The translations under genes and the position numbers were made by a program. Shown one piece after another: positions 16,371 to 40,744 of a DNA stretch of 64,000 bases. Below the pieces are notes generated by a model that was not told the origin of the DNA, made no database searches, and saw only the letters and a program-made list of their open reading frames with translations. How positions within the stretch are numbered: position 1 is the first letter of the stretch; each line of letters opens with the position of its first letter. The stretch comes from Okamejei kenojei (taxonomy: Eukaryota). Location: the NCBI GenBank assembly GCA_035221665.1, contig CM069142.1:34658001-34722000 (forward strand). The letters are read 5' to 3'.

Positions 16371-16475
16371 GGAGAATGATGGAAGGGAATTGGGGAGCAG
16401 GCTGGTGGGTCTTGAAGGCTTGTTTCTGCTTTGCCAATGCTACCAGTTGTACTAATGGTGTTCTGTATTCTCCAG

Positions 16476-16877: not shown

Positions 16878-17006
16878 GTAAGTGTCAGCACCAAAGACCT
16901 GAGATCTGAAAATATCTGTGATATGATATGATATGAAATGAAAATATCTAGCATGGTATGAACATCGACTTCTCCAGTTTTAGGTAACCTCTAACAACTT
17001 AACAAA

Positions 17007-17265
17007 GGGGTGGCGCAGCGGTAGAGTTGCTGCCTTGCAGCGCCAGAGGCCTGGGTTTGATCCTGACTACGGGTGCTGGCTGTATGGTGTTTATACGTTC
17101 TCCCTGTGACTGCGTGGGTTTTCCCCTGGTGCTCAGGTTTCCTCCCACACTCCAAAGACATGTGATCTTTGACCAAAAAGGTTTGTAGGTTAATTGTCCT
17201 TGGTAATAATTGTAAATTGTCCCTAGTGTGTAGGATAGGGATAGTATACTTGGGTGATCAATGGT
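17007..17265 (+). mobile_element. V-SINE (HE1-like)
   Basis: GGTGGCGCAGCGGTAGAGTTGCTGCC head; V-domain. Confidence 0.85.
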
Positions 17266-17629
17266 CGGGTTTGGGTTGGGACCTTTCTACAAACTCATGT
17301 TAAAGCTGGCGCTGGATGGGAGAGGTGCTTTGTAAAGGCAGCAATAGATTTGGGGAAAAGTAGAGACAAGGAACAGCAGATGGTAGTATACAACAAAAGG
17401 CACAAAGTGCTGAAGTAACTCAACGGGTCAGGCAGCATCTCTGGAGAACATGGGTAGGTGATATTTGTAGTCTTCTGAAGAAGAGTCCCGAGCCAAAACA
17501 TCACCTATCCATGTTCTCCAGTGATCCTGCCTGACCTGCTGAGTTACACCAGCACTTTGTTGTTTAACTGAAACTATCTTGCGTTTTAGTCTGGTGAATA
17601 CATGATTATCCAAAATAAGTGTTGGGATA

Positions 17630-18245
17630 TGTAGGCACAAGAGATTGCAGATGCCCGTTTACAAAAAAATAGACACAAAGTGCAGGAATGAGTGCTGGAT
17701 CTGACAGTATCTGTGGAGGATATGGAAAGGTGATGTTTTGGGTTGGGACCCTTCTTCAGACTGATGAAGTACAGGGAAAAAGCTGGAAGAGGGGTGGGGC
17801 AGGACAAAGCCTGGCAAGTGATAATAGACACAAAAAGCTGGAGTAGCTCAGCGGGACAGGCAGCGTCTCTGGAGAGAAGGAATAGGTGATGTTTCGGCTT
17901 GTGACCCTTCTTCAGACGAGTGGATGCAGTTGAGGTGGGGGGGGGGGGGGGTGGGGGGGGGTTGATTGACAAATGGTTGTCAAAGGCTAGAGATGAAGAG
18001 ACAAAAGGTAGTGAGATAAGGAGAGAAGGATAGAAGAGGCGTGAAATGTGTCGCCAGAGAAAAGGATACAGATGAAAGGGGGTGATGGGTGGGAGATGGA
18101 AAGGGGAGCAAGGTAGTGGGAGAAATGTGTGCACTTCCAGTTGGGGCACAGGGAAGAGGGCAGGGGGGGTATGTTTGTTGGTTATTATTAACCTAAAACT
18201 GGAGAATTTAATGTTCATCCTATTGGGTTGTGAGCGCCCTAAATA
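17630..18245 (-). mobile_element. Penelope-like element 3' fragment with tandem pLTR units
   Basis: Minus strand reads LGRSQPNRMNIKFSSFR (GIY-YIG ORF end), then two CTGAAGAAGGGTC..AAACATCACC units. Confidence 0.7.
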
Positions 18246-19230
18246 TGTCAATATTTGTAATATGCCACTGATATTGTTCAATATGGCTAGATTTTCCAGG
18301 TCCATATGTTGACTTGGGAACGGACATTTTTGGTGTTTTACAAAGAGAGTGATTTAATTGACAATTATGTCATTTAGCTGGCTTTAGAAAAGAGTAACCA
18401 TCCATGATAGAATTTTATGAAAAGATTGAAAATGATTTTGTTCAATCATAAATGTAATCAAAGCAAATTATGAAGCTGGCTGCAGAGATTGGGGAACTAC
18501 ACTACAAGGGATGGTGATGAAACACACAAAGACCAACATTTTATCAATTGATGCAGTTTATCGCAAAAATGCATCTCTTTGTTATGCAAAAACCCAACTG
18601 GAAAGATTGGCCGAGAATGACAAACAAGAGAATAATGTTAGACAAAAGGAAAAAGCTAATAACCCGCCAAAAGGCTCAGCAACCCCATGTTATGAAAAGC
18701 ATAAAGGAGGTTTTTTTTTATAAAGGAAAGTAAATTAGAATATGAAAGAATATAGGAACAGATTTCAGATGCCCATTGGTTCAGAGGTATTTTATTGTCA
18801 CATGGAACTAGGTACAGTGAAATTCTTTTTTTGTACACAGTTCAGTAAAAATCTTGCCACAGGTCCACCACCGAGTTTCCAGTACCCTTGGTTCCAGAGC
18901 CTAGACGTATTACCTATCCCGCAAAGTGGACTATGAGAACAGATCTGTTGGTTCCAGAGCCCCGACCGCATGGGGCAAATTCAACCTGCTGATCGGCAGC
19001 GGAAATTGACGATGGGAACGGATCCGCCTGTCCATTCCCTCCACAGATTCTGCCTGGCCCGCAGAATTGGTTTTCTTTAGGTTGGTTTACTTTTAAGACA
19101 CAGCGTAGAAACAGGCTGAGTTACTTCTGCACCTAGCGTCTTTTTTAAATATCTTCCCACTGACTGACTAGATATTGAAATTATTGGACTTTGGCACCAA
19201 CACCTTTTTTATTTGTTGATGACTTTACAG

Positions 19231-19629
19231 AGAGTGGTTTCAGCGTAACAGCAATAACACGGACACCCTCGGTGACGTACGGTAACGCGTTTGAACTCCA
19301 GTGCTTCATCAGACCAAACTATCCTTCCTGGGTGTCCGTATCGTGGAGGTGGAAATTCCAGTCATCCCAATCAGGCAACATCTACGACATGGTCACGTTT
19401 GCCCGCGACACGTCAATCATTTGGGAAGATAAGGTCACAAATTTTAAGAGCAAGACGATGATTACAAAGACGCCCAATAACGTCCGGCTAACCGTCTCCA
19501 AGGCTAGTGATTTGGAGGCGGGGAGATACCAGTGCATTGCAGAGCTTTGGCATCAGAATCAGATGGAGCAGTGGGTGAGGAAAGCTGAAAAATCGTCAAA
19601 CATCCTGGAGGTCAAGGTCAAACCGCCAG
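19231..19629 (+). CDS. IGSF3: IGSF3 exon, Ig domain 5 (399 nt, phase 1-1)
   Basis: tttacag|AG acceptor, CCAG|gtaagt donor. ESGFSVTAITRTPSVTYGNAFELQCFIRPNYPSWV..ASDLEAGRYQCIAELW..SNILEVKVKPP. Confidence 0.95.
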
Positions 19630-19960
19630 GTAAGTGTCTGAGATTCTCTTTCAGTCAGATAGCGATGCACTTGCCTCGGTTTAATACATCAATAAGTCTG
19701 CAGTCTAGCCTTGCAGGCACCTGAAAACAGTATTGTTGTACATTACAAGCCATTTAAGCTTCTAAATCTGTTTGCTGCCTTATTAACATTCTGCAGCCCA
19801 TATTTCAATTGTCTAAATGTTTGTAATACACTAATTCGTATTACCGTTTGGACAGCACATTTCCTGTTAATGACGTTAAATTCTGCATACTGCTCCAATT
19901 GTTTTCCATATATTCGCGTTTGCTGAATGCATCATGTTTAGTAAAATACATTTAGAATAG

Positions 19961-20050
19961 CTGCGGGTACAAGACCCGAAACGTCAACTATTTCCTTCGC
20001 TCCATTGATGCTGCCTCACCCGCTGAGTTTCTCCAGCAGTCTTGTCTACC
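19961..20050 (+). mobile_element. 90-bp Penelope-derived unit with 10-bp TSD
   Basis: TTTAGAATAG at 19951-19960 and 20051-20060 flanks GGGTACAAGACCCGAAACGTC..GATGCTGCCTCACCCGCTGAG. Confidence 0.8.
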
Positions 20051-20445
20051 TTTAGAATAGGTGCTGCTCAATTCTCAGTGTAGAAGCAAGGAAATGCAAA
20101 TGCTAGTTTAGCAAGGAAAGCGGTAACCAGTCTGAAGAAGGGGCCTGACTCGAAATGTCACCTATCCATGCTCTCCAAGGATTCTGCCTGACCCGCTCAG
20201 TTACTCCAGCACTTTGTGCCTTTCCCTGTTCAATTCTAATTTTTTGAATGAAAGGTTCAGTGTGGGGACAGGACCTTTGGTCCACCGGGTCCACCTGTTC
20301 ACACGAGTTCTATGTCGTCCCACTTTCACATCCACTGCCTGCACACTAGCGGCTATTTACAGAGGCCAATTAACCTACAAACCCACATGTCTCTGTGATG
20401 TGGGGAGAAACCGGAGCACCCAGAGGAAACCCACGCAGTCACAGG

Positions 20446-20751
20446 NNNNNNNNNNNNNNNNNNNNNNNNNNNNNNNNNNNNNNNNNNNNNNNNNNNNNNN
20501 NNNNNNNNNNNNNNNNNNNNNNNNNNNNNNNNNNNNNNNNNNNNNNNNNNNNNNNNNNNNNNNNNNNNNNNNNNNNNNNNNNNNNNNNNNNNNNNNNNNN
20601 NNNNNNNNNNNNNNNNNNNNNNNNNNNNNNNNNNNNNNNNNNNNNNNNNNNNNNNNNNNNNNNNNNNNNNNNNNNNNNNNNNNNNNNNNNNNNNNNNNNN
20701 NNNNNNNNNNNNNNNNNNNNNNNNNNNNNNNNNNNNNNNNNNNNNNNNNNN
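20446..20751. other. Assembly gap (306 N) inside a V-SINE
   Basis: Run of N; both flanks are minus-strand SINE sequence. Confidence 1.
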
Positions 20752-21043
20752 ACCCAGGTCTCTGGCATTGAGAGGCAATATTTTAATTGTCTAATGCATG
20801 AACCAATCATTCTTATTACTGTTTAGGCACCACATTTCCTGGTAATTACTTAAAACTCTGCATTATGCTCCAATTTATTTCTATATACCCGTACTTGTGT
20901 TTATTGATACATCCTGGTTGGCAACATACATTTTAAATAGGTACTGTTTAATTTTCATTTCAAACCCCTTTTTTCTCTCTGGAAGATACTGATTACTCGC
21001 TTACTTTAATAGACATTGGGTCGCTTGTGCAGGGACACCATTA

Positions 21044-21366
21044 AGGGGTGGCCCAGTGGCGCAGCTGGTAGAGGTGCTGTCTCACAGAACAGAGACCTGG
21101 GTTTTGATCCAGACCTTGGGTCTGTCTGTGTGTGGAATTGGCACGTTCTCCCTGTGACCGTGTGGCTTTCCTCCAGGTGCTCCGATTTCCTCCCACATCC
21201 CAAAGACGAGCGGGTCTGTAGGTTAATAGGCCTCTGTAAATTGCCCCCTAGTGTGTAGAGAGTGGATGGGATAGTGGGATAACTTGGAACTGGTGTAAAC
21301 GGGTGATCAATTGTCGACGTGGGAACGGTGGGCCGACGGGCTTGTTTCCATGCTGCATCTCTAAAC
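21044..21366 (+). mobile_element. V-SINE (HE1-like), full length
   Basis: Head, V-domain and tail all present. Confidence 0.85.
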
Positions 21367-22609
21367 TCGAAACATTACGTGAAACTCTTGCTAAAAATAA
21401 ACACACAACGCTGGAGTAACTCAGTGGGTCAGTCAGCATCTCTGGAGAAAATGGATTGGTGACGTTTCACTTCCCAACATGAGTCAATTGGTCCCGAAAC
21501 ATGACTCCATCACACTGCTGGCGCTATCCGTCTCACTTTCCCTGTATCACCTCATGAGGCTTCTTACTAAAATCTACAGCACCTAATGAACTTAGTCGCT
21601 ATCAGTCGTAGTCTCTCTCCCTTTTCTAAGTCCATTGTTTAAACTTGATCTTTATCTTCCTCGCTCTTTCAATCTCTGTCGTCTCTTCATCTTAAACATC
21701 CCTTGATGTGAGAGTTAGCTTTATTCAGATACCTTGTGAGAAGAATTGAATGGTGCTTGTAGCCAGTAGTGTTCTTGCTGTAGACTTCCAGCAGCAGTCA
21801 CTGTGCCTGTGTGTCAGTAGTAATGAATGTTCAGCTTCGAGCCATCTGTCAGAACAAGTGGGAATACAAGATTTCACTCTTACCTCCTTCTCTCGAATTA
21901 TTCATTGGAATATCCGAGAGCTGCCTCAGATCATCTCAAATCCTCTTTAACATGCGGTATGCTTTTTTAAAACATAAATTTAATGCTGAAAAGTGATTAT
22001 TATCAGTTGTGGTGAGCATTTTCGTCAGAAGCCCTTCACAACATCAGATATCACATAGAAATATAAATAAAGAAGAAGGTACTTAAACATTGTGTTATGG
22101 GAGCACTTCCTATCTAACATAAATACCTCAAAATCTGATGGATGTGCTCCTGTATAAAATAGGCGCCAACTTTTAATTGGCTTCCGGCATACATGTGTTT
22201 TGCATAAGATGCCAGTATCTGCAGCTCCTTGTGTCTCTAATACTATTTCAATATTAATTTTTTAATATTAGTTTTTTAAATACTAGTTTAAAAGGATGGA
22301 TTTTAAGCCATGTTCAGGACTGCTTTTAACTCTGGGCCTTTAAATTGTAACAAATAATAATTAATTACATGGCAAGGTGCGTAAAAAGAGACAAAACATA
22401 ATGAAACACGTATAGCTAAAAAATAATTAGTAGGATTGTTATGTACTAGCAAGTTCAGTATGTTCATTCAGGTGAGAATTGTGATCGGCAGAAATGGAAA
22501 ATTGAACTCAAAACTGAATTGTTCCTGAACCATAGTGCAAAACAGAAAACCCCACGACTGCTTATACACACGCATATCGATAAAAGGACCAATGAAAATT
22601 CATCTGACA

Positions 22610-24220
22610 GATCATATACAGCATGGAAACAAGCCATTTGGCCCAACTCGTCCATGCCGACCAAGATGCCCCAGTTAGTCCTATTTGCCTGCATATCCTT
22701 CTAAACCTTTCTACCCATATACCTGCCAAAATGTGTCTTATACGTGCCCTTAACTATCTTTGCCCTTAAGCTTTCCTACCCATATACCTGCCTTAACTAT
22801 CTCCTTTGGCAGCTTTTTCCATGTACTCACCACCCTCTGTGTGAAAAAAGTTGCTCTTCTCACAATAGACAATAGACAATAGGTGCAGGAGTAGGCCATT
22901 TGGCCCTTCGAGCCAGCACCGCCATTCAATGTGATCATGGCTGATCATCCCCAATCAGTACCCCGTTCCTGCCTTCGCCCCATATCCCCTGTCTCCGCTA
23001 TTTTTAAGAGCCCTATCTAGCTCTCTCTTGAAAGCATCAAGAGAACCGGCCTCCACCGCCCTCTGAGGCAGAGAATTCCACAGACTCACCACTCTCTGTG
23101 AGAAAAAGTGTTTCCTCTTCTCCGTTCTAAATTCTTACTCCTTATTCCTAATCTGTGGCCCCTGGTTCTGGACTCCCCCAACATCAGGAACATGTTTCCT
23201 GCCTCTATTGTGTCCAAACCCTTAACAATCTTACCTTAAACCTGTGTCCTGTGATTCTTGATTCGCCTACTCTGGGTAACAGACTCTGTGCATTCACCCT
23301 ATCTATTCCCCTCATGATTTTATACACCTCCACAAGACCTCCTCTCAGCCTCCTGCGCTCCAAGAAATAAAATTCTATCGTGCCCGACCTCTCATTAGAA
23401 ACATAGAAATATAGAAACTAGGTGCAGGAGTAGGCCATTCGGCCCTTCGAGCCTGCACCGCCATTCAATATGATCATGGCTGATCATCCAACTCAATATC
23501 CCATACCTGCCTTCTCTCCATACCCTCTGCTCCATACACTCATACCCATACCTAGCCACAAGGGCCACATCTAACTCCCTCTTAAATATAGCCAATTAAC
23601 TGGCCTCCACTACCCTCTGTGGCAGAGAGTTCCAGAGACCCACCACTCTCTGTGTGAAAAAAGTCCTTCTCATCTCGGTCCTAAAGGATTTCACCCTTAT
23701 CCCTAAGCTGTGACCCCTTGTCCTGGACTTCCCCAACATCGGGAACAATCTTCCTGCATCTAGCCTGTCCAACCCCTTAAGAATTTTGTACGTTTCTATA
23801 AGATCCCCTCTCAATCTCGTAAATTCTAGAGAGTATAAACCGAGTCTATCCAGTCTTTCTTCATAAGACAGTCCTGACATCCCAGGAATCAGTCTGGTGA
23901 ACCTTCTCTGCACTCCCTCTATGGCAATAATGTCCTTCCTCAGATTTGGAGACCAGAACTGTACGCAATACTCCAGGTGTGGTCTCACCAAGACCCTATA
24001 CAACTGAAGTAGAACCTCCCTGCGCCTATACTCAAAATATACTCCTATGCTCCCTATACTCAGAACCTCCCTATGCTCCTATACTCAGAATCTCCCTATA
24101 GCTCAGGCCCTCGACTCCTGGCAATATCCTTGTCAATTTTCACTACGCTCTTTCCTATTTAATGGCATGCTTCCGATGACCGGCTGATCAGAAATGAACA
24201 CAATTCTCCAATTGTGGAGT
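22610..24220 (-). mobile_element. Nest of three CR1 fragments (host plus inserts at ~22863-23230 and ~23396-24035)
   Basis: Host sequence resumes after each insert; ORF 23596-24003 has VRPHLEYCVQFWSP..RTRGHSL; distinct microsatellite tails. Confidence 0.85.
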
Positions 24221-26319
24221 GCTCCTTGATCGTTCCAACTAAAGCTTTATGCTTCCCTTTCCAACAGACTAAATCCACCCTTGATATATTCCTTCATCTT
24301 TGATTTCTCTCTTGCCATTTCTTCTAATAGCTAGTACCTGACTGACTGAGAGTTTCTTATATTTTCTGTTTGAAATTGATGAGATTTTTTTAAAAATAAA
24401 CCTGAATTAATTTAAATTATATTTTCACATCTAACAAATTATTTAGATATCCATTAATATTACATGTTTAATTTACATGCACTTCATCATCCTACCCAAG
24501 ATCAGATTGCTTGATATTTAACTGAGGAAATTGATAGCTGGTAAGTTTTGCTTTAGTTTGAGACGCAGCATGGCAACAGGCCATTCAGCCCACCGGGTCC
24601 ATGCTGACCATAGATCACCCGTTCAAACTAGTTCTAGATTCTCCCATTTTCTCATTCACTTCCCTACACACTAGGAGCAATTTTACAACAGTCAATTAGC
24701 CTTTTGTAGGTTAATTATCTTCTGCGAATTGCCCTTAACGTGAATGAAGTGGATGCAAAAGTGGGATAGGATAGAACGGGTGCGTGAGCGGGTGATTGAT
24801 GGTTGGCATGGATTTGGTGATCAAAAACTACAACCCGCTAAACCTGCACGTCTTTGGGGTGTGGGAGGAAACCGGAGCACCAGTCACAGGGAGAACGTGC
24901 AAACTCCACACATGGACAGCACCCGAGGTTAGGATCAAACCCGGGTCTCTGGTGCTGTGAGGCAGCAGCTCTACCGCACAGTGGAACGGTACTGAGAATA
25001 CAAATTTGTATCTGACCCTCGAGCATTTTGTGTCTATCTTTGGTATAAATCAGCAACTGCAGTCCCTTGTTATTACATTTTGATTCATTTTTTTTGTGCT
25101 GTTTCTCTCCGGTTCTGTAGCATTATCTTATATTGGCCTTAACCTTACAAATTGCTGCTGTTTCTGGTATATATTGTTTGTTGACTGTTTTTTGAATTGA
25201 CCCCTGAAGATTCCACAGAAGCGCGGTTAGGCTGAATACTAATGGAGTTTGAGCTTTGGTGGGAAGTTAACTTTACATCATCTTCCGAAAAGGATGTTAA
25301 GAAACATTGCTTTTCACTTTTTTTTCCAATTGGTAGAGTTAAATATTGTTGTTTTCTGTGTTTTATAGTGTCGAGATTATTTATGACTATGTTGCCAGGA
25401 CTTGAGGGTCTGAGCTGCAGGGAGAGGTTGGGCAGACCAGGATTCTGTTCCTTGGAGCACAGGAGGATGCGGAGTGATCTTCCAGAAGTGTATAAAATCA
25501 TGAGAGGAATAGATAGGGTGAATGCCTAGAGTCTTATACACAGGGTCGGGGAAATAAACAACCAGAAGTAGGTTTAAGGTGAGAGGGGAAAGATTTAATA
25601 GGAACCTGAGAGGCAACCTTTTCACACAGAGGGTGGTGGGTATATGGAAAGAGCTGCCAGAAGGTTCCTTCAGCACTGTGTTTTGTTCAAGGTTCCAGCA
25701 CCTGCAATTCCTTGCGTGTCTCTATATGTCCACACGTGGGCATCACTGGGTTCCTGCCAATTCCGGTAAATAGCAGCAGACGCTCGAGTCCTGGCAACAT
25801 CCTCATAAAACATCTCCGCATTCTTTCCACCTTAGTCAATTCCACCGTATTTCTTTATCAATATGTATTGATAACGGGACAATCAAATGTATATGTGGTG
25901 CAGCTTTACAGGCCCACAAACACAATAACAGACACATAATGTACAATAATAGTAATACAATAAATGAATGATCAGTAAAACTGGGACATAGAGTCAGTGA
26001 GTCATAGCCATGGAGTCATACAGTGTGCAAACAGGCCCTTCGGCCCAACTTGCCCACACCTGCCAACATGTCCCATTTACACTAGTCCCACCTGCCTGTG
26101 TATGGTCCATATCCCTCTAAACCTGTCCTATCCATGTGCCTGTCTAACATTTCTTAAATCTTTAGATAGTTCCAGCCTCAATTACCTCCGCTGGCAGCTC
26201 GTTCCATACACCCACCACCTTTTGTGTGAAAAAGTTGCCACTCAGATTCCTATTAAATCTTTCCCCCTTCACTTTAAACCAATGTCCTCTGGATTCATCT
26301 ACTCTGGGCAAGAGACTAT

Positions 26320-26900
26320 GTAGCAATGTTACAAAATTTTGAGATTTTAAAAATCAAGTCTGCAATTTAACCCATCAGATAAAGCATAAAAAAAAGTTTA
26401 ATGTGATACCTAATTCACTTTCATATCTTCAGTATTAAAAACATTATGGCCATTTTCATATTCAGAAATTAGCATTGTGTTCCCTATTGCTTTTCCATTC
26501 TTAACACAAAAGCTGTGTTCAAGGACAGTCAAAAGCCCATAACTTTCTTAAAAATTAAGAGAACTGAATGAAATTTTCAGTTATTATAGATTGAAGCATT
26601 CTGAAACAAATATGAAACAATCTTACTTGGATGACCTGAAATTAAAACATATAATTAGTTAGTTACCTAATTGTAGCTAATTACAAAATTCAATTTCTAG
26701 ATCTAAACATATATCCATTTCTTAAGAAAAGGTTAACATTTTTAAAAAGCTTAAGTGTCCAAATTCACACAATAATTTACAATATAACATGATTTTTAAA
26801 TCTCATTGTCATGAATTTATAGGCCAATTTGAAGGAATTTAGTGTTTAATTCCCGTAATTTAATGGCCATTTAAATCATCTTGCGAGTGGGTTTTTGTGA
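26320..26900. mobile_element. AT-rich insertion, probable DNA transposon fragment (unclassified)
   Basis: Abrupt composition change between two CR1 3' fragments; no ORF; no TIR pair found. Confidence 0.35.
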
Positions 26901-27307
26901 CCGACCAAGATGTCCCATCTACACCAGTCCCACCTGCCCGCACTTGGTCCGTATCACTCTAAACCTGTCCTATCCATGTCTAATTGTTTCTTAAACAGTG
27001 CGATAGTACACGGCTCAATTACCTCCTCAGGCAGCTCGTTCAATCACCCACCACCCTTTGTGTGAAAAAGTTACCCTTCAGGTTCTTCAGGTACACTCCC
27101 CTCCCCTCACCTGTATTCACCTATTACCTGCCAGGGGTTGCCCTGCCCTTCCTCCCCCCCCCCCTCCCCACACAATCATGCTGAAGAAGGGTCTTGATGC
27201 GAAACATCACCTATCCATGTTCTCCAGAGATGCTGCCTGACCCGCTGAGTTACTCCAGCACTCTGTGAAACGTCACCTATCCAAGTTCCATGATGAAAGA
27301 ATGGGTC

Positions 27308-27735
27308 GACTGGGCTTGTCTTCACTGAAATTTAGGATGAGAGGGGATCTTATTGTAGACACATAAAATTCTTAAAAGATTGGACAGGCTAGATGCAGGA
27401 AAAATATTCCCAATGTTGGGGGAGTTAAGAACCAGGGGTCGCAGTTTAAGAATACGGGGTTGGCCATTTAGGACTGAGATGAGGAAAAACCTTTTCACCC
27501 AGAGAGTTGTAAATCCGTGGAATTCTCTGCCACAGAAGGCAGTGGAGGCCAATTCACCAGATGTTTTCAAGAGAGAGTTAGATTTAGCTCTTAGGCCTAA
27601 AGGGATCAAGGGATAAAGGGAAAAAGCAGGAACAGGGTACTGATTTTAGATGATCAGCCTTGATCATATTGAATGGCGGTGCTGACTCAAAGGGCCGAAT
27701 GGCCTACTCCTGCACCTATTTTTCTATGTTTCTAA
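27308..27735 (+). mobile_element. CR1 3' fragment
   Basis: DRLDAGKIFP..RTRGRSLRI..FTQRVVN; CTATGTTTCTA tail. Confidence 0.85.
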
Positions 27736-28204
27736 GAGGTTGCTGAGCCAGGTACAATTTTCAAGTCTACTTATTGAAATGTTAAAAAGACATTTGGACA
27801 TGTACATGGATACCACCCTGATTATGCATCAACATGGCAAAATATATGGAGACAAATCTGCAGTTTCCTAATTGATCTTCCACAACTTTGTTGTTTAATA
27901 TAATTGGAAGGAGAAAACCGAGTTTTGCAGGTTAATTTCTCTTGATTTCCTACAAATCTTTAGCAAAATTTGCCCCTTGCCTCATTTACTGACAGCATTA
28001 TGGAGCTCCAATCATCATAAAGACCTTAGACCTTTCTGGCTACTGAAAATTAAAATTAATTTAATTAAAAGTCCAATTTCGGCCTTTAATTGCCTCATTT
28101 GCTTTTGGACTCGAGTGTCTGTCAGTTGTACATTTATTTACAAGAAGTTAATATTTTTACAAGAGCAAGCATAAATCAGAACAGTTTACAAACAGTTTTA
28201 CAAA

Positions 28205-28333
28205 TCAGTCCGAAGAAGGGTCTCGACCCGAAACGTCACCTATTCCTTCTCTCCATAGATGCTGCCTCACCCGCTGAGATCCTCCAGCATTTTTGTCTAC
28301 CTTCGATTTTTCCAGCATCTGCAGTTCTTTCTT
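28205..28333 (+). mobile_element. Short Penelope-derived unit with the best-preserved hammerhead-like stem II/GAAACGTC
   Basis: TCAGTCCGAAGAAGGGTCTCGACCCGAAACGTCACC..GATGCTGCC..CCAGCA, flanked by an AAACAGTTTT direct repeat. Confidence 0.75.
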
Positions 28334-29506
28334 AAACAGTTTTCAAACCAATGTCAGAGGACAGATTATACACTGGGACGGGAGAGCGAGAAGGCGCAGT
28401 GATGCAGCATGTAGAGCCACTGCCTCGGCACCAGGGACCCAGGTTTGATCCTAACCTTGGGTGCTGTCTGTACGGAGTTTGCACATTGTCACATTTGCAC
28501 TTTGTATCACTTTTGTAAACCAACAACTGCAGTTCCATGTTTCTACAGTTTGTCCCCATCCTCCCCCCCCCCCCCCCCCCAATACAATCAGTCCGAAAAA
28601 GGGTTTTGACCTAAAACATCACCTATCCATGTTCTCCATACATGCTGCCGGATCCACTATGTTACATCAGCACTTTGTGTCATTTTCTTGTAAGCCAGCA
28701 TCTGCAGTTCCTTGTTTCTGCAGATAATCGGGTTGTTTTGATGCATCTCTGAATGCTGTATCTGACTTTATCATTTTGTGTATAAACAAGATGTGTCAAA
28801 TCTCGAGAACAGCTCACTCTAAATCAAAGGACCTGATTGTAATGAGTCCAATCTACACTGATAAATGCCAATTCAACACGAGGCAGCTCTTCTGAGTTTG
28901 TAGAGGCAGAGTCATATCGCTCTAAACCTGTCCTATCCTGTCTAAACGTTTCTTAAACATTGCAATAGTACCAGCCTCAACTACCACTGGCAGCTCGTAC
29001 CATACGCCCACCACCCTTGGTGTAAAAAAAGTTACCCTCAGGTTCCTATTAAATCTCCCCCCCTTTACCTTAAACCTATGTCCTTTGGTTCTAGATTTCC
29101 CTACTCTGGGAAAGAGACTCTGTGCGTTTACCCAATCTATTCTCTCATGATTTTATACACCTCTATAAGATCATCCCTTATCCTCCTGCGCTCCAAGGAA
29201 TAGAACCCTAGCCTGCTCTACCACTCCCTCTCGGGCCCTCGAGTTCTAACAACATCTTTCCAATTAGAATGGTGGCTGTACAAGATGAATTTGTAATGTT
29301 GTTAAAACCTTAGCGATGTGTTAGAGGCCACGATCTACTGTCAAGATGAAAGCGAGACTCTGAGCATTCACTGCTTCTGTCGCAGAAATGGTACAAACCC
29401 TTCAGGCAAGATTTATGTGTGAGCATCCAGAGGTTGATATCTGAGCAGCGCTGCTCTATGTTTAGTTTCATGGGGAGTGCATCTTGCTGACTGGCTAATT
29501 GTGGAT

Positions 29507-30270
29507 ATGCACTGAGTGGCGATGGCAGCCTCGCCAACGGTCTGCCTGTCTTCGTCTTCTTTGTTATTTTTTAGTGTGGTTTAAAAGTGTGTGTTAACAT
29601 TCTCTGGTTTGTTTTATGTGAAGGGGGTGGGGGGGGGGGGGGGGAAATTTTTTTCAATCTCTCACCTTGCCGGAGATGCGATTGTTTTCCGGACCGTATC
29701 TCTGGTCGCTCTGCGGCCTGACGTCATGGAGCTGGCGGCCTTGCTCGAGACTGACTTTGAGCCCCACCGCAGGGCCGTGAAGTTATCATCGGAGCGTGCG
29801 ATCCCTCGCCTGGGATCGACGCTCCAACCACGGCCTGCGGATTTCAACATCGAGGAGCTCGCAGTCTCGGGTAGAGACCATGTCGGGAAGCTCTAAAGTC
29901 GTAGGAAGTTCGACTAGCCCCGACCCGGGGTCCGATTGCCCGGCACGGGGGAGCTAAGATCCCCCCCCCCACCGATGCGAGAGCCTGATCGCCCCAACGT
30001 GGATTGCTCGACCGCCGGCTGCGGGAGCCAAGATCGCCCCGACAACGGAAGGTTCAAGTGCCCCGACCGCGGGAGAACAAAGAAGGGAAGAAGATTTAAC
30101 TTTTTTTGCCCTCCATCACAGTGAAGAGTGTGGGGGAGTCGCTGTGGTGGATGTTCATGTTAGATATGTGTTTGGGTGTATTGTTACTCTTTATTGGTAT
30201 GACTATGAGAAATCAAATTTCTCGTATGTTGCAAAACATACATGACTAATACTGTTCTTATGATTATGAT
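29507..30270 (+). mobile_element. GC/CpG-rich non-coding retroposon, longest copy
   Basis: Shares its 3' ~200 bp (CCATCACAGTGA..GTGGTGGATGTT..CGTATGTTGCAAAACATAC) with 30660-31050 and 37827-38200. Confidence 0.7.
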
Positions 30271-30659
30271 GAAAGCTGTGCAGGTCGAGAGTGTTTAATT
30301 GTTGTATTCACTGAAAAGAGATCAATGAAACTCGTACTTACTGGAGCTTTACAGGCCTGTATATGCAATCGCACACAGATAAATATAAAACAATCGATAA
30401 TGTAACAGATTATTAACATGGATAGGTGACGTTTTGGAATCGAAGAAGGGTGCCACAGTGGCGCAGCAGTAGAATTGCTGCCTTACAACACCAGAGACCT
30501 GGGTTCGATCCTGACTACGGGTGCTATCTGTACAGAGTTTGTACATTCTCCCTGTGTCCGCATGGGTTATCTCCGGGTGCTCCAGTTTCCTCCCACATTC
30601 GAAAGATGTACAGATTTGTATGTCAATTGGCTTCAATAAAAATTGTAAATTGTCCCTAA

Positions 30660-31050
30660 ATCATAATCATACTTTATTAACCAAGTATGTTTTGCAACGT
30701 ACAAGGAAGTTGATTTGCCGTACAGCCATACCAATAAAAATCAGCAAGACATACAAAATACATTTTAACATAAACATCCACCACAGTGACTCCTCCACAC
30801 TTCTCACTGTGATGATGGAAGGCGAAAAAAAAGTTAAATCTCTCCCTTCTTGTGGTCGGGGGCCTCGGGCCTTCTGTCGTCAGGGCGATCTTGGCTCCCG
30901 TAGTCGGCGGTCGAGCCTTCTGCATTGGGGCGATCACGCTTCCGCATCGGGGGGATCTCAGGTCCCCCACGCCGGGCGATCGGACCGCGGGTCGGGACAA
31001 GTCGAACCTCTTAAGACTTTGGAGCTTCCCGACATCAGTCTCTACCCGAG
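30660..31050 (-). mobile_element. GC-rich retroposon, 5'-truncated copy
   Basis: Reverse complement of the same 3' end, with AATAAAG(TATGAT)n tail. Confidence 0.7.
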
Positions 31051-34000
31051 ACTGTTAAATTGTAAATTATTAAAGCAGAGATTGACAGATTCTTGATTAA
31101 TAAGAGTGTCAAAGGTTACAGGGTGAAGGCAGGAGGATGGGTTTGAGAGATAGATCACCCATCATTGAAGGCAGAGTAGACTTGATGGGCCGAATGGCCT
31201 AATCCTGCTCCTGTGACTTATGAACTTACTCCAGCACTTTATGTATTAGCCAGTATCTACAGATCTTTATTTCTAAATTATTAACAGTATCACTAGGCAA
31301 CAAAAGCTTTTCACTGTACCTTGGTGTACGAGACAATACACTAAACTTATAATTCAAAAGCCGAAGTCCAGGGCACATTTCTTTACACAGAGGGTGGTGA
31401 GTGCCTGGTACGCACTGCCAAGGATGGTTATGGCTATCTAGAAGCCTTTTAAAGACCACTAACGTATCTGCTTCAACCATCATCCCTGGTTTTCTCCTAC
31501 ATCCCACAGACACAGACATTAATTGGGCCTCTGTAAATTGCCCCTAGTGTGTAGGGAGTGGATGAAAGGAAGCAGAATAACATAGAATTAGTGTGAGCGG
31601 GTTGTCAATTGGCAGCAAGGACTCGTTTGGCCTAAGTGCCTGCTTCTATGTTGTATTTTGCAATCAATCAATCCTGAATTGCAAAGGAAAGTCTTGAGTG
31701 GGCCAGTCTTCTCCCACCCCTACAATCAGTCAAAAGAAGGTCCTGACTCGAACCGTCACTTATCCATGTTGTCCAGAGATGCTGCCTGACTATCTGAGTT
31801 ACACCAGCACTTTATGTTTTTTTTTTGACTGGGCCAAAGATAGACACAAAGTGCTGGAGTAACTCAGCAGGTCAGGCAGCATCTCTGGAGAAAAGGAATA
31901 GGGGATGTTTAGGGTTGGGACCCTTCTTCCGACTAAAAGATTGAGGTGGAGGGAGGCGGACTGGAGGCGAGAAAAGGCCAGAAACAGAGCCGGCTACACA
32001 TGACCTCAGGAAGGGTGGAGTCCATAATGGCCCATTTTTGGCTGGGGAAGATGTGCGGTCTACAAGGGTGCGAACAGTGGAATTTGTAGACTGGTTTGTC
32101 AAAAAATAATCAGAAATTGGTGCGAATGAAAATTTGACTGAAACGCTGAACCAATCATTCTGAATAGATAAATCACCTAGATTTTGGACTACTACAAATT
32201 GTAGCAACCGTCAAAAACAAATAATAACCCTTTAATCAAAATGTTGGATTGTTTACTGGCCCTCATTAAGTCAAACTAGAAAGATGCATAGTCTCAGAAG
32301 TAGAAGCTGTAGTTTGGGTAATAACTCTCCTGCTTTTGTGTGTACTAATGAAACTATCGGCCAGATTTAGCTTCTGGGGAAAGTGATTATGCAAATTGTG
32401 TTGTCTTTCGTAATAAAGCAGCAAGCCTCTCAACGCCTTCATTAGCAAGGTTCCAAGAAGCTGAAGGAAGTAGCATAATATCCATCTACTCCCAGGCAAA
32501 GAGTACCAATTATTGTTCACTATCACTAACTACGTGTGATCAGTCGAGAATTTAGACGTTAAAGCTTTTCCAAAATGAAGCCATTTCTTTTCTCCTTAAA
32601 TGTGCTTTCAGTTTCTCACATGGCAACCCGCCCTTATCAACCTAAATCACCTCCAATTCACTTAAACTTTAGAGACACAGCATGGAAACAGGCCCTTCGG
32701 TTCCAAACTGACCAGCAATCACCCTACATGATCCATTATGCATTATAGCGTCACCTATCCATGTTCTCCAGAGATGCTGCCTGACCTGCTGAGCTACTGC
32801 TGCACTTTGTGTCCATATTTAATCTATTCTGCTCTAAATCTTTCCATGAAGGTATGAAAGTAATTATCTAATAAATAACCATATTGTTACATTGCAATAT
32901 AATGTAATCATATTGACTTGTCCATAATGCCAGCAGCAATTTCTACTTCAGAATTTGAATGCTTTCATTTAATGTCTTTGCCCAGCTCGGTTTGCCAAAA
33001 AAAAAACCTTATTTCATGCCTGTGCTATTATTGTTATATTAATCGGCTGTATTTCCACAAACTAACAGGGAGTTATAATTGGGATTACAGATTAGCCTAT
33101 TAATAGCTAAATCTCAAAGATCACAAATCTTTTCACTGTTCCGATAATTAAGGACTGCTCAGGATTGTACTTGGATCTAAATGCTGGGGAGTTATTGCTG
33201 AGATTATCCTTAAAATTATCCTTAAAAATTCGATGCATATAATTTGCAGAGTTGATGCACAATTGCGATTAGAACAAAATATTAAAGGCCCGGCAAATTA
33301 AAGAAGCATCTAGTGTAATTGTGAATTTAAAGCACTTTATTCAAAACAGCATTTAAGAAAATTAAAGTTTTGTTTGGTTTAGAGATACAGCATGGAAACA
33401 GGCCTTTAAAGTTAAGTCCACACCGAGCATCTAGAACCCATTCACACGAGTTCTATGTTATCCCACTTTCGCAAGTCTTTGGGATCTGTGAGGAAACCAG
33501 AACACCCAGAGGAAACCCACATGGTCGCAGGGAGAACGTGCAAACTCCACACAGCAGCACCCGGGGTCAGGATCGATCTTCGGTCTCTGGCACCGTGAGG
33601 CAGCGTCGTTACCTCGTTGGTAGGGAAACTAACAAGAAGGAGTTCCAGTTCTGGTGAAAAGACACAAAGTGCTGGAATAACTCAGCGGGTCAGGCAGCAT
33701 CCTTGGAGAACATGGACTTTTCAGGTCGGGACCATTAGATGGGTCGTGACCCAAAAGATGACCTATCCATGTTCTCCAGGGAAGTTGCCTGACCCGCTGA
33801 GTTATTCTAGCATTTTGTGTCTTTCCTTGATAAACCAGCATCTGTAGTTTCTCGTTTCTGCATATTAAAGTAGTTAGTTGTGGTAGAAGGAATGCTGCAC
33901 AGTATTTGCATAATTCTGTCAATGACTGTCTATGTGTTTTTCACCTGTGACTGCCTGTCTGGCAATCTTTCCATCTTCATCCTTGTGTACGTGACAGCCT

Positions 34001-34683
34001 GTGTGGTTATATCTTTGTTACCATTCGTGTTTTATGTGTTGTTTGAGTTCTTCTTCGTATGTGGAGCAAGTTATATGTGCAGCTAGTTATTCTGTGGCTC
34101 AGAAATACTTTTAATAAACAAATGGAGATTATATCTATTGTTCTCCGTCCTTTCTTTACACACCCCGCAAGTTTCTGTAGCGTATGGCGATCAAAGCACA
34201 GATGTGCCACTCTCTAACTTCCTTCTTTGTCCTCTCCACCTCGTTCTTTCGTAAATGTACCCAAATGTATTCACCCTGATGAAATACTCACTTTTGTTTA
34301 TGAAATGAGCCATAAAATTAAACATTATATGTGGAGAATGCATTGTAAATTGGGTAGACATCTTCGAGTGTTGATCTGCATTTGAGACATTCTTTAAAGG
34401 CGTACTTGCAGAAATTACAAGTCGAAGGTTGTCGTGAGAGGATTAAAGGTATTGTTTAATAAAAAATTAAAACTTGATCCTCATTCCAAATAATTTGTGG
34501 TTAGACAGCAGATCTGTGATAAAGGCACAGGCTAGATGAACAGCATGAACCTTTGTTACATAAACATCAGGGTAGCACAGTAACACGTTATCCATTTATA
34601 CATGCCTGCTCCGTTGGCTTCTATTAATCAATGTGTATAGCAGATGCATTGTGTGGCTTCAAAATCCCCTGAGTGCCACATAG

Positions 34684-34685
<2 letters not shown>

Positions 34686-34727
<42 letters not shown>
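34686..34727. repeat. (CT)n microsatellite
   Basis: About 21 CT units. Confidence 0.95.
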
Positions 34728-34732
<5 letters not shown>

Positions 34733-35173
34733 CATTTGTCTGAGAACTGTCATCTGTGCAGTCCCTGGTTTTAATTGCAACGTGATGTACAACACTGTGG
34801 AATGTAGTCAGCACTCAGCTGGTTTGAAGTGGGCGACAACCCTGTGGCATTATCAGTAATGTTCTTCCAAAAAACGTCAGATCAGCATCCACTCTCCACA
34901 AATGCTGCGCTTGGAGCGGCTATTTCTGGTTGCATTGTGAAATCTCTTTTAGAATGTCTGGTACCGGCTGAGGAGTCCCATGGTGTAGAGGGCCTGGAAG
35001 CCCACCAGCCCAGTAATTGTCTCTCTGTGACCTCCTGACATAAACTGTGTGGCACTGAGGGGTTGGCAGCGGGTTATTTGATCACTATATTTCAATGCGG
35101 ATTTTACACAAGATGTCACGTTATGCTGGCAAGACGTGCCCCTGTTTGAGTATCTGAAGGGACTGCTCCCCAA

Positions 35174-35463
35174 GTTTAGTTTAGTTTAGAGATACAGCGT
35201 GGAATCAGGCCCTTTGGCCCACCGAGGTTGCGCCGACTAATAATTATCCTGTACACCAGTCCTATCCTAAACACTAGGGACAGAATTTACAGAAGTCATT
35301 TAACCTAAAAAAATGCACATTTTTGGAATGTAGGAGGAAACCGGAGCACCCTAGAGAATCCATGCAGTCACACGAAGAACGTGCAAACTCCATACAGACA
35401 GCACTCGTAGTCAGGATCAAACCCGGTCTCTGGCGCTGTAAGGCAATAACTTTACCACTGCGC
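35174..35463 (-). mobile_element. V-SINE (HE1-like)
   Basis: Consensus on the minus strand. Confidence 0.85.
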
Positions 35464-35859
35464 AAGTGTCCGCCTCAGTACTGACTGCATTTTAGACCCC
35501 GCTCCTGATCTTTGGTCACTCAATACAGAGGGGGAAGAGTCCGTCAGTCGGCGAGGGTTGGGAAGCCCCTGTTGGTTGGCTCCTGGGCCTGGCCAACATG
35601 GCCATTGACGGGTCCGGGCAGTCGGGGTTCCTGCCCGAGTCGACTGCCTGCCCTTCTTCCCGGCCCATGCCTGTGCTCGCGTGTCCCTGGGGAAGGAACG
35701 CACGGTGTCCACGGTGCCTTCCGTGAAGGCTGGTTGCCGGGTGGGGGGGCGGGGGGGGGGGGGTCGAGTGGGTCGAGGATAAGGCTGATAATGGTGTGAT
35801 CATGGTTGAATGATTGATGTTCACAAACTGCTGGGGCAGTTTTGATATTTCCAGTTCTT

Positions 35860-35972
35860 CTTCTTCCTGCGTATGGCGTGCACAGCCTAAAGTTGTAGGT
35901 CAACTTGTTCTATTTGATCTTGTTTGTGGACGTCGGGTCGATCACATTGGTCGAAACAGGGTGCACCACCCC
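35860..35972 (-). mobile_element. Short (GAA)n-tailed retroposon (113 bp)
   Basis: TSD TTTCCAGTTCTT at 35848-35859 and 35973-35984. Confidence 0.85.
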
Positions 35973-36076
35973 TTTCCAGTTCTTGTGAGTGTGATTATTT
36001 TGAATAAAAGCTCCTTGTTCAGGAACAACAAAATGTTGTCAAGACTGGGTCCTAGCTGCCTATATTGGGAGACTAA

Positions 36077-36304
36077 AGGGCCCGTCCCAATTGGCGATTT
36101 ATTTTGGCGATTGCCGGCGTCATATCAGTGTCACCAAAAGATTTTGAACATTTCAAAATCCAGCGGCGACCAAAAAAAATGTTGCGACACTTGAAAAAAC
36201 GCCGCGCGTCAAAACGGCATCGCGCCGCAGATTGTTCGCTGACCTGATATGTCAGTCAATGATGCCGGTAGTCGCTGAAATAATCGCCAAGTGGGACAGG
36301 CCCT
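36077..36304. mobile_element. PIF/Harbinger-type MITE (228 bp)
   Basis: ~45-bp imperfect TIRs (AGGGCCCGTCCCAATTGGCGATT.. / ..AATCGCCAAGTGGGACAGGCCCT) flanked by TAA on both sides (36074-76, 36305-07). Confidence 0.85.
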
Positions 36305-36964
36305 TAAGAAGACCTGATGGAGCAAGAAAGCTGTGACCAGCGCCACAAAGAACCTTTGAGGAGCTGGAGAAATGTATGTGAAATCCAGACTTTGACACAC
36401 CACAAAAAGGCACAAAGTGCTGGAGTAGCTCAGTGGGTCAGGCAGCATCTCTGGACAACATGGATGTTTTCGGGTCAGGACCCTTCTTCAGACTGACCTC
36501 AATCTGACACTCATCTCCTATCCCCGAGTCCCACCTTCCCTTTTATTCCCCCCCCCCCATTCCTCCTCATCTCTCCTATCTGATGCCCTTTGGTCTCATT
36601 TTCATCTCTGGCCTTTGTCAGACTCCACCAATCTCCCAGTCCACCAATTTCCCCCCGGGTGCCCCTCGCCTGTATCCACCCGTCATTTCCCAGGCTTTGT
36701 CCAGCGCCATCTCTTCCAGCATTTCCCCCCTACTCCATCAACCTGATATAAAATGTAATCTGTCCATCCCCTCCATAGATGCTGCCTGACCCACTTGGTC
36801 CTGCCAGCATATGTTTTTTTTGCTCCAATTCTGAACTCCCGATCAGCCAAACACCTTCAGATCTTCTGCTAATCAAGCCAAACTCAAGTACAATAGATAG
36901 AGTAAAGGGGAAGATAGAGTGCTGAACATAGTTCTCAGCTTTGTAGCGCATCAGTTCCATAGAC

Positions 36965-38345
36965 ATAGATACAGAGACAATAGGTGCAGGAGTAGGCCAT
37001 TTCTGCGCCTCCAGCCAGCACCCCATTCAATGTGATCATGGCTGATCAACCCAATAACTCATTCAATGTGATCATGGCTGATCATCCACAATCAGTACCC
37101 TGTTCCTGCGTTCTCCCCATACCCTTTGATTTCACTAGCACTAAGAGCTCTATCTAACTCTCTTTTGAATGCATTCAGTGAATCGGCCTCCACTGCCTTC
37201 TGAGGCAGAGAATTCCGCAAATTCATAACCCTCTGTGTGAAAAAGTTTTTCCTCATCTCAGTTCTAAATCGCCTACCCCTTAGTCTTAATCTGTGGCCCC
37301 TGTTTCTGGACACCCCCAACATCAGGAACATGTTTCCTGCATCTAACTTGTCCAATCCCTTAATAATTTTGTATGTTTCTATAACATCCCCTCTCATCTT
37401 TCTAAATTCCAGTGAATGCAAGCCCAGTCGCTCCATTCTTTCATCATATGACAGTTCCGCCATCCCAGGAATTAACCTTGTAAACCTACGCTGCACTCCC
37501 TCAATAGCAAGAACGTCCTTCCTCGAATTAGGGGACCAAAACTACACACAATACTCCAGGTGTGGTCTCACCAGGGCCCTGTACAACTGCAGAAGGACCT
37601 CTTTGCTCCATACTCAACTCCTCTCGTTATGAAGGCCAACATGCCATTAGCTTTCTTCACTGCCTGTTGTACCTGTATGCTTCCTTTCAGTGACTGATGT
37701 ACTAGGGCACCCAGGTCTCGTTGTACTTCCCCTGTTCTGAACCTGACAACATTCCAATAATTATCTGCCCTCCCGTTCGTACCTCCAAAGTGGATAACCT
37801 CACATTTATCCACATTATACTGCATACAGGTTCGACCAGCCCCGACGCGAGGTTCGATCGCCCGGCGCGGGGGAGCTGACATCCCCCCGATGCAGGAGCT
37901 TGATCGCCTCGACGCAGAGGGCCCGAACGCCGCCAGCTACGGGAGTCAAGATCGTCCTGTCAACGGAGGTTCGAGGCCCACGACCGAGGAAGAACAGAAG
38001 GAAGAGACTTGAACTTTATTTCGCCTTCCATCACAGTGAGGAATGTGTAGGAGTCACTGTGGTGGATGTTCATGTTAAAATGTGTTTTTGACTGATCTGT
38101 TACTTTTTATTGTATGACTGAGCTGGTCAATGAAATTCCTCGTATGTTGCAAAACATACTTGGCTAATAAAGTGTGATTCTGATTCTGATTCTGATTCTG
38201 ATCTGCCATGCATCTGCCCTCTCACCCAACCTGTCCAAACACTCTGCATCCTCGTAGCATCCTCTTCACAGTTCACACTGCTACACAGCTTTGTGTCATC
38301 TGCAAATTTGCTAATGTTACTTTTAATTCCTTCATCTAAATCCAT
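36965..38345 (-). mobile_element. CR1 LINE 3' portion interrupted by a GC-rich retroposon
   Basis: [39 protein letters not shown]. Confidence 0.88.
37827..38200 (+). mobile_element. GC-rich retroposon, 5'-truncated copy inserted in CR1
   Basis: Splits CR1 ACTGCAT|CTGCCATG; ends AATAAAGTGTG(ATTCTG)4. Confidence 0.8.
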
Positions 38346-38349
38346 TAGA

Positions 38350-38870
38350 TTAAGTGCAATGTCCGCAATGGGGTAGAGGTGAGTAGAACAGTGCCCTAGT
38401 TTATGGATAGATTTTGCAAAAACCTGACAACAGAGGGGAAGAATCTATTCCTAGTCTGGTGGTGCGAGTTTTCAAGCTTCTGTACCTTCTGCCAGACAGG
38501 AGCAGGAAGAAGAAGGAGTAATCAGGATGAGACAAGTCTTTGATTATGTTGTCCACTCTTCAGAGGCAGTGTGAAGTGTAGATGGAGTCATCCGGTCTGT
38601 GTGATGGACTGAACTACATCTAAAACTCTATGCAATTTCTCATGGTCTTGGGTAGAGCTGTTCCCAAACTAAGCTGTGATGCAACCCGACAATATGCTTT
38701 CTATGGTGCATCTTTTTAAGCGTATTCGGGGACATACTGGAAATCCTGAGTCTCCTGATAATATTAACACCCTGGAACTTGAAGCGCTCAACCATGTCCA
38801 CTTCGGCTCCATAGTTGCTGATTGAGGCCTGTACTCCACCATGCGTCCTGAAGTCGATAGCTCCAATGTT
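38350..38870 (-). mobile_element. Rex1/Babar-type LINE fragment
   Basis: RCTIESILSGCITA motif; homologous to 2830-3010, 36860-36965 and 58850-59180. Confidence 0.7.
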
Positions 38871-40744
38871 CTAGTGTTAGGCCCTTGAACAAAATGTCAC
38901 CTGGTCACTGCGTCTAACTGTTAGCTCCAAATTTCTGAGCATCTATTCCACGCAGTAATTTGTTCCCAGAAACCAACTTACAAAGAGGAATTGTTTGATT
39001 ACATGGCCACTTGTCACCGTGCAGCCTGAGGAACCTGCAGTCCATCAGTAACTTTTAAATGGCCAGCAGGAGTAACATTACATTTGGCATGATAATGTGT
39101 GAGTGCTTTGATTAATTATTAATTTGGTGCACATTTGCACGAGAAAGATGCAAACGCAGCAACTACACAGCAGCCTTTTGGATATAAAACCTGTTGTACA
39201 TCACATTGATGACCTCAATGAATATTGCAAGGAAGAGAGAGCGTCAGCGCTGAATTGCTCAAGGGAACGTTAAAAGCAGGAACCGGGGGAAATATTTTTT
39301 TGTTTATCACCTATGTTTCATACCATCTAGGGAGCTTTCTAGATAAAGTAAAGTTTAATGTAGAAACAAGGAAGTGCAGAATCTGGCTTATATCAAAGAT
39401 AGACACAAAGTGCTGGAGTAACTCAATGGGTCAGGCAGCATCTCTAGAGAGAAAGAATGGATGGCGTTTCGGGTTGGAGTCCGAAGAAGGGTCCTGACCT
39501 GTAACGTCATCCACCCTTTTTCTCCAGAGATGCTGCCTGACCCGATGAGTTACTTCAGCAATTTGTGTCTGTCTAAAGTTTAGTATCTTTTACTAAACTG
39601 CGCAGCATATGTTTGAATAGGAACCCAAATTTATCCATTGGCAAAACAAGTCTGAAGAAGGGTCCTGATGTGAAACATCACCAGTCCATGTTCCCCAGGG
39701 ATGCTGCCTGACCCAGCGAGTTACTTCAGCATTTTGTGTCTATCTTTGGTATAAACCAGCATCTGCAGGTCTTTTTTATTATATTTTAAAAACAAGTTTT
39801 TGTTGATTGAAAGATACAGCTTTGAAAGAGGCCCTTCGGCCCACCGAGTCGACGCCAACCATCGATGACACGTTCACACTAGTTCTATGTTATCCCACTT
39901 TCTCAAGCTGTCCCTACACACTAAGGGCAATTTTACAGTGGCCAATTAACCTACATCCATGCACGTCTTTGGAATGTGGGAGGAAACCCACAAGGTCACA
40001 GCGCCACTGTTTTTCAAATAATTTACACTCTGTGCAATTACTTCATTGACTGGGGAAGATTAATTTGTTATATGTTCTTGAGGCAGTGTAGCTTCAAATT
40101 TGATTCTCCGTGTTAACTGTTGATTCCAAGCAACAGTGGTGAAATGTTTATTAGATGGTGAGTCCCTGGAGACCTGGAACTCAGTGGGTGAAGAGTGCAG
40201 GAGTAGATGAAAGTGGTACAGTGGTGTACCGCCAGAGACCCGGATTTAATTTTGACCTCTGGTCCTGTGTGTGTGGAGTTTGCACGTTTTCCCTGTGACT
40301 ACATGGGTTTCCTCCGAGTGCCAAAGACGTGCAGGTTTGTAGGTTAATTGGCCTCTGTAAATTAACCCTGGTTTCCCCTAGAGTGGATGAGAAATAGGGT
40401 TAATATAGAACTAGTGTGAACAGGTGATCAATGGTCAGTGTGAACTCAGTGGGCCGAGAGCATAGAATGTTTGTGCCGAGCATGATGCCATGTTAAGCCG
40501 ATCTCGTCTGCCTATATATGATCTATATCCCTTTATTACTTGTTGTGGACATCCAGAACCGCACTCAGTACTCCAAAGGCAGCCTAATCAAGGTCCTTGA
40601 TTTTGTTTCTGTGCTGTGTTTTTCAATCAATCATTGAGTATCTTGCTAATAGTCCAATAGTCTCGGTGCTGATTGGGGTAAAAGGTGTCCTCTTTATGGT
40701 TAGTGAGCCTGAGAGAGAGAAAAAATGAGGATGTTTTGACTTAG

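Follow-up and report, generated by a model that had tools for sequence, protein, structure and literature searches.

Minimal hammerhead ribozymes (min-HHR) are known from the pseudo-LTRs (pLTRs) of metazoan Penelope-like elements (PLEs), and have been reported, with low activity, in fish Neptune, Poseidon and Xena elements (Cervera and De la Pena 2014, PMC4209133). As described in the accessible parts of that paper, they share with the motif analysed here CUGANGA, the extra base before stem II, G10.1-C11.1, the palindromic 15.2-16.2 and the lack of stem III, and they lie mostly in solitary truncated copies. Stem I is 2-3 bp here, a length of 2 bp being described there for D. virilis alone, and the copy number is far above the 4,000-9,000 reported there for coelacanth and Xenopus; no chondrichthyan was found named in the available portions of the paper or its supplements. 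Neptune-clade EN+ PLEs, as outlined by Craig et al. (2021, PMC8557442), share RT, a C-terminal GIY-YIG and a CX2-5CxxC linker, a layout given for Neptune and Nematis elements, together with 5' truncation, partial tandems, an inverted 5' copy and a 30-40 bp tail. The Anolis Poseidon element PAc (Frangieh et al. 2024, PMC11167929) shares two internal initiation sites downstream of the hammerhead that define the tail, and its main substrate in vitro, in the results available from that study, is uncut RNA with no reads at the cut site, as appears here too. Unlike PAc, whose ORF starts within stem II, the present element begins its ORF about 130 nt past the cut site, and stubs read here as run-off products dominate. 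Penelope of D. virilis, in the portions seen of Schostak et al. (2008, PMC2377424), shares a TATA-less internal pLTR promoter with Inr and a downstream element; an intron separates its start from the hammerhead, whereas the putative start here lies 3 nt before C3. Animal non-LTR retrozymes (PMC7229834; Li et al. 2026, bioRxiv 10.64898/2026.07.22.740005) are, in the available text, pLTR-derived and non-coding, as are the present units; unlike them, the stubs described below are not tandem, and a 66-nt family that is retrozyme-like in being tandem, dispersed and stably folded as a predicted circle lacks a complete hammerhead. Scattered truncated PLE hammerheads are thus of an already known kind, and the 66-nt tandem unit is the new part of the finding.

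The window, by which the whole 64-kb stretch of skate DNA analysed is meant, contains an IGSF3-like host gene with 96% identity to a skate protein; its nearest protein, P0001, bears source labels recording low quality. A sequence-only reading had listed 21 copies of a hammerhead-like motif and placed them inside IGSF3. The motif is present at all 21 positions to within 30 nt (22-30 of 31 matches, and 16 in one copy with a 1-nt deletion), the host gene is as supposed, and the copies past about 55,000 lie beyond its last coding exon. The caution that no copy is perfect also held, since all 13 core positions are intact in none of the 21. The features of the window are as follows.

28205..28338, + strand: young pLTR stub with full tail; C3 at 28210, C in place of U4; cleavage predicted after 28237
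28190..28204, + strand: left TSD of the 28205 unit; the right copy, 28334-28347, overlaps the element's last bases
19965..20050, + strand: TSD-flanked stub starting at stem II, without CUGANGA; TSDs at 19951-19964 and 20051-20064
10600..11345, + strand: 5'-truncated copy of the putative Neptune element; decayed GIY-YIG ORF end, stop at 10937-10939, 324-nt 3'UTR
17631..18240, - strand: ORF end (about 17 codons), 3'UTR and two decayed hammerheads; antisense to the gene
27176..27283, + strand: decayed hammerhead head, C3 at 27181, plus a member of the 66-nt tandem family
8112..8350, both strands: head-to-head stub pair
17361..17562, both strands: head-to-head stub pair
33656..33868, both strands: head-to-head stub pair
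39351..39787, both strands: head-to-head pair plus an extra sense stub; C3 at 39481 and 39652, both broken
42135..42255, + strand: stub with 5-bp stem I and mutated core, C3 at 42147
42675..42859, both strands: head-to-head stub pair
49143..49249, + strand: sole window copy passing the loose test of core, stem II and palindrome; stem I fails
57744..57875, - strand: stub with CTGATGA, broken GAAA and palindrome; past the last coding exon
62019..63046, both strands: two more head-to-head pairs, past the gene
129..36814, both strands: remaining single stubs and partial copies, C3 at 268 (-), 2726, 3161, 3513, 9667 (-), 15158, 20132, 28593 and 36491 (-)
8469..54959, + strand: host gene, IGSF3-like, eight coding exons (amino acids 137-1169 of P0001)

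The TSDs proposed for the units at 19961 and 28205 are real, the former being 14 bp long with 1 mismatch and the latter 14-15 bp with 1 indel. The 5-bp stem I with a mutated core at 42135-42255 is real as well. The 28205 unit has relatives 94-97% identical on many contigs and departs from its subfamily at U4. At 10545-11345 the decayed GIY-YIG ORF end is there; the motif, said to follow it directly, lies 324 nt past the stop codon, and this hammerhead, at 11261, is broken. The ORF end supposed at 17630-18245 was likewise found, reduced to its last 17 codons or so (DNA score 70 against a shuffle maximum of 30); protein comparison of this remnant gave no match, and its two hammerheads, with C3 at 17915 and 17759, are 156 nt apart. 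The copy at 57835 does carry CTGATGA, with GAAG in place of GAAA and a broken palindrome. The window also holds two tail-to-tail stub pairs (31719-31939 and 9322-9680), the reverse of the usual head-to-head arrangement, the former giving spurious Rfam miRNA matches; a LINE-type RT fragment at 13714-14514 (-; RVT_1, E 8e-28) unrelated to the hammerhead stubs; and a 19-nt minisatellite of 14 copies at 42374-42643, flanked by two stubs.

The motif is abundant well beyond this gene. Window copies served to build a profile, whose refinement drew on 60 stretches of 10 kb each, placed at round coordinates on 31 contigs and not strictly random as a sample. With each arm of an inverted pair counted, the profile gives 44 fragments for the window and 255 for these 600 kb of other sequence; the 600 kb reversed give 0. 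Scaled to the 2.76-Gb genome, this corresponds to an estimated 1.2 million fragments, so IGSF3 is not special; at 0.69 per kb, the IGSF3-like gene is about as densely populated as the interiors of ion-channel genes (0.62). A structure descriptor gives 66 matches in 1 Mb, nearly all from one superfamily, against 0 in each of 10 shuffles. Of the 255 fragments, 19-24 pass the descriptor, from which 90,000-110,000 passing copies are estimated genome-wide.

In anatomy the motif follows the minimal type closely. CUGANGA, GAAA and a NUH triplet occur in order and are invariant across six subfamily consensuses; the extra base before stem II, the G10.1-C11.1 pair and the palindromic 15.2-16.2 are all present, with stem II of 4-5 bp and stem I of 2-3 bp. 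The subfamilies were clustered on downstream sequence alone (381 of 567 copies), and their consensuses agree at all but one of the 28 hammerhead positions, the exception lying in loop II, while 20 of 61 downstream positions vary (p 0.002), which points to selection on active elements, for the ribozyme, the promoter or both. Excess conservation of the core, which the sequence-only reading expected, is therefore seen between subfamily consensuses, and among the copies there is no clear excess: in inserted copies, 6.8% of cells at non-CpG core positions are changed against 8.1% downstream, a small gap open to ascertainment. G12 and the palindrome lie in CpGs, and core CpG positions are changed in 27% of cells. 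Stem covariation, the absence of which the same reading had counted against itself, came out negative, compensatory double changes not exceeding the shuffle level among subfamilies too close to give much power; the only stem or site variants seen are one-sided U-A to U-G and GUC to GUU. Rfam scans of the window and of one intact copy gave no hammerhead match. The predicted hammerhead fold lies 3-5 kcal/mol above the minimum, the minimum-energy folds of the leader mostly do without the hammerhead, and four of five leaders are predicted to fold no better than shuffles. The hammerhead is predicted from its sequence to cut solely as a dimer, and it is broken in every window copy.

The units are very probably short end pieces (pLTR plus tail) of an autonomous Neptune-type PLE of about 4 kb carrying a dimer-type minimal hammerhead, in agreement with the earlier identification of the motif as the minimal dimer-type hammerhead of a PLE. 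The same sequence of about 130 nt stands at both ends of full-length elements, continuing at the 5' end into the ORF start and coming at the 3' end after a stop codon and 3'UTR. Loci were gathered with the decayed GIY-YIG ORF end before the 11261 copy as the starting query, and in such GIY-YIG loci the distance from the stop codon to the motif after it is most often about 90-115 or 180-240 nt. Walking upstream led to 20 long loci, picked for holding the 5' part of the ORF: motif and tail are contiguous with the ORF start in 17, the motif stands at both ends, 3.9-4.0 kb apart, in 15, and four are tandem. The single ORF encodes RT followed by a C-terminal GIY-YIG, with a DKG motif and a C-X4-C-X2-C linker (translations of L151-L170). 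Its Pfam matches, RVT_1 at E 2e-5 and a weak GIY-YIG at E 0.03-0.05, are both below curated cut-offs, PDB and NCBIfam searches with the ORF gave no match, and every ORF copy examined carries stops or frameshifts. The element has pLTRs, partial tandems, an inverted 5' copy and a tail, and by motifs alone its clade would be Neptune-type, Nematis having the same linker. A selenoprotein, suggested by a recurring in-frame TGA, was ruled out, the TGAs being a frameshift artefact in the query. Three full-length copies (L259, L260 and L269) lack the same 15 nt immediately ahead of the start codon and share their 5' end, and are probably segmental duplicates or one sub-lineage.

The ends of young copies bear on how the stubs were made. 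Sixty young copies, retrieved with queries from downstream of the cut site, end on the 3' side at either about +69 or about +100 relative to it, positions that match the known PLE tail, although one of the two queries held the tail and biases its 3' ends. The TSD score is at least 10 in 29 of the 60, against 2 of 300 mismatched pairs, with TSDs of 10-18 bp, and an inverted partner accompanies 26 of the 60 and 60 of 174 in a larger non-redundant set. The 5' ends vary widely, some lying within the motif and others over 800 nt before it, in the ORF. Among 114 non-inverted young copies, 33 begin at least 40 nt upstream of C3, 8 at -39..-9, 42 at -8..0, 24 inside the motif, 3 at +25..+31 and 4 beyond; the pile-up is spread over -7..0, is located identically in both 3'-end classes, and peaks with 13, 11 and 8 copies at -3, -2 and -1, so that 32 of 114 start 1-3 nt before C3. 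No pile-up occurs at the cut site, where exactly one of 174 young copies starts (+28), which argues that the templates were uncut.

Judged from these positions, a transcript start at the A three bases before C3, with stubs arising by run-off copying of the uncut leader, is a reasonably probable account. Transcription would begin at that A; RT would start inside the 5' leader, at its tail sites, and run off the uncut RNA end, giving a mass of stubs of about 100-135 bp, while initiation at the 3' copy would give ordinary 5'-truncated or full-length copies. After insertion the copies would decay neutrally, and decay at CpG is observed. A start at -3 would also explain a stem I of only 2-3 bp. The A at -3 is the A+1 of an initiator match; counted from it, +18..+27 agree with the MTE consensus at 8 of 10 positions, the highest score among 13 registers (nominal p 0.003); this agreement is post hoc and partly forced by the hammerhead's own letters. 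Positions +18..+22 fit the revised motif fully and +28..+32 fit DPE weakly, in 3-4 of 5 positions (consensus from the available text of PMC5580651). That an Inr-MTE core promoter within the hammerhead DNA fixes the 5' end of the stubs and limits stem I to 3 bp is put forward tentatively. Full-length elements starting near C3 are few (2 of 17, at +2 and +4) and most have longer upstream pLTRs, so read-through or circular templates are needed besides the -3 start. Five copies starting at -3/-2 (L092, L107, L080, L280 and L088) have 3-6 extra, often G/A-rich bases between TSD and element, a pattern that could come from non-templated addition where a template ends. Together the copies form a very large fossil record of PLE replication, a process still being worked out, and this record points to copying from uncut RNA, to initiation at two sites and to a fixed start immediately ahead of the ribozyme.

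The preferred 5' end could instead be a stop or switch point of RT, or a splice acceptor as in Penelope of Drosophila virilis, whose intron ends at helix I in the available account (Cervera 2014, PMC4209133). A polypyrimidine tract followed by CAG before -1, present in most master 3'UTRs, does look like a splice acceptor, the near-palindrome around C3 could favour fold-back in inverted pairs, and full-length copies mostly read past the preferred end. However, the mode is at -3 rather than -1, the pile-up remains when copies with an inverted partner are set aside, and the gap between a clean TSD and the element is 0-6 nt in most non-inverted cases, so no exon was captured; these points make such an origin rather unlikely. 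Neither a GT-AG joint nor a circle joint at the cut site was found among 15 of 39 joint rows from assembled RNA contigs, a result that speaks neither for nor against these readings. The same end data weigh on the earlier proposal of a ribozyme-bearing non-autonomous family, in which retrozyme- or SINE-like stubs would be copied from a short RNA of their own. Very high copy number, a preferred 5' end, two fixed 3' ends and the units' own TSDs would suit it. TSDs are expected around any truncated copy, so those of the window units lend it no support, and the two TSD-flanked units, at 19961 and 28205, differ at both ends, the former having been inserted without CUGANGA. Against it, 5' ends are variable, 33 of the 114 young copies extending at least 40 nt into the 3'UTR or ORF; start at the cut site is seen in just the one copy; within each subfamily the stub sequence equals the full-length pLTR sequence, so that the same sequence flanks full-length elements; and nowhere in the window are hammerhead units arrayed in tandem. 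Among 64 near-intact copies in 1 Mb, one has a neighbour on the same strand at most 400 nt away, and tandem units each with a complete hammerhead, the mark of non-LTR retrozymes, were found neither in the window nor in the 66-nt family. A separate family is very unlikely, and origin as end pieces of the full-length element is preferred.

The proposal that sense copies in the pre-mRNA dimerise and cut introns, affecting IGSF3, is extremely improbable, although the palindromic stem III permits trans dimers and the 90,000-110,000 genomic copies estimated above still pass the descriptor. Of the 38 copies that lie before the last exon, none satisfies core, stem II, palindrome and stem I at once; a single copy does so when stem I is disregarded. 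Depletion of sense copies was found neither in the IGSF3-like gene nor in 400 kb of ion-channel gene interiors: 26 sense stand against 12 antisense copies in window positions 1-54636 (p 0.03), the opposite of what intron cutting predicts, and 137 against 111 (p 0.11), or 22 against 19 for intact copies, in 40 ten-kilobase stretches, assumed intronic, from 14 ion-channel gene regions whose orientation was taken from Pfam exon matches. Published minimal hammerheads are, in the accessible results, weak even as dimers or active only with the element's protein (PMC4209133, PMC11167929). The stubs likely have no effect on IGSF3 RNA.

The 66-nt offshoot is visible in the window at 27176..27283, where the copy at 27181 ends by going back to G12 of the motif, forming the junction of a 66-nt unit; one unit (27201-27266) is followed by 17 nt of a second. 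A pattern search for the exact junction counted 14,533 in the genome against 0 for the control; they form numerous short arrays in both orientations, and 92 of the first 100 junction places listed for contig C1 fall in 188-192 Mb of its 201 Mb. The family also occurs at L157:6278-8001, L135, L049, L199, L015, L304 and L311-L338. The unit runs from G12 to the tail hairpin and keeps the cleavage triplet; being without CUGANGA and stem II, it falls short of a complete hammerhead in every unit. As a circle it has a predicted fold of -10.7 kcal/mol, equalled by 2 of 300 shuffles. The unit was not found in the literature searched; the preprint 10.64898/2026.07.22.740005 lists chondrichthyan families, and its supplements may bear on the unit.

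Young 66-nt units appear, from their sequences, to have entered older stubs by homology and in register. Of 34 arrays examined, 13 have a head and internal units that can be recognised; in these, heads differ by 17% from a young hammerhead, and first and internal units by 5.6% and 1.2% from the modal unit (p 0.0005), and there is a change to other subfamilies in some of the first and last units. In 19 of 33 arrays the end is in register with the ordinary tail, and others start and stop at arbitrary phase. Old heads, young internal units and in-register ends together point to later entry of units into old stubs. This pattern fits ectopic gene conversion in regions at chromosome ends as well as rolling reverse transcription of a small circle; the 33 arrays show no convincing TSD, and this, with the clustering, leans towards gene conversion. 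The alternative joins two propositions, that the unit is a substrate-only satellite parasitising a ribozyme and that hammerhead DNA doubles as an Inr-MTE core promoter, and jointly they are distinctly unlikely. Having kept the cleavage site and tail hairpin and dropped the catalytic half, such a unit would depend for its cutting on a Neptune hammerhead nearby or in trans, by way of the palindromic stem III; it would circularise and be rolled by Neptune RT into thousands of old stubs in register. If the offshoot spread via RNA, it would be a far smaller retrozyme-like unit borrowing ribozyme and RT, and evidence that the PLE hammerhead cuts in vivo; if it spread by gene conversion, it would still clearly show a minisatellite invading a million homologous repeats.

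At two further loci (L174 and L186) the hammerhead itself is repeated in stutters of 46-49 nt, with 2-3 copies, an arrangement that could put complete cores in tandem.
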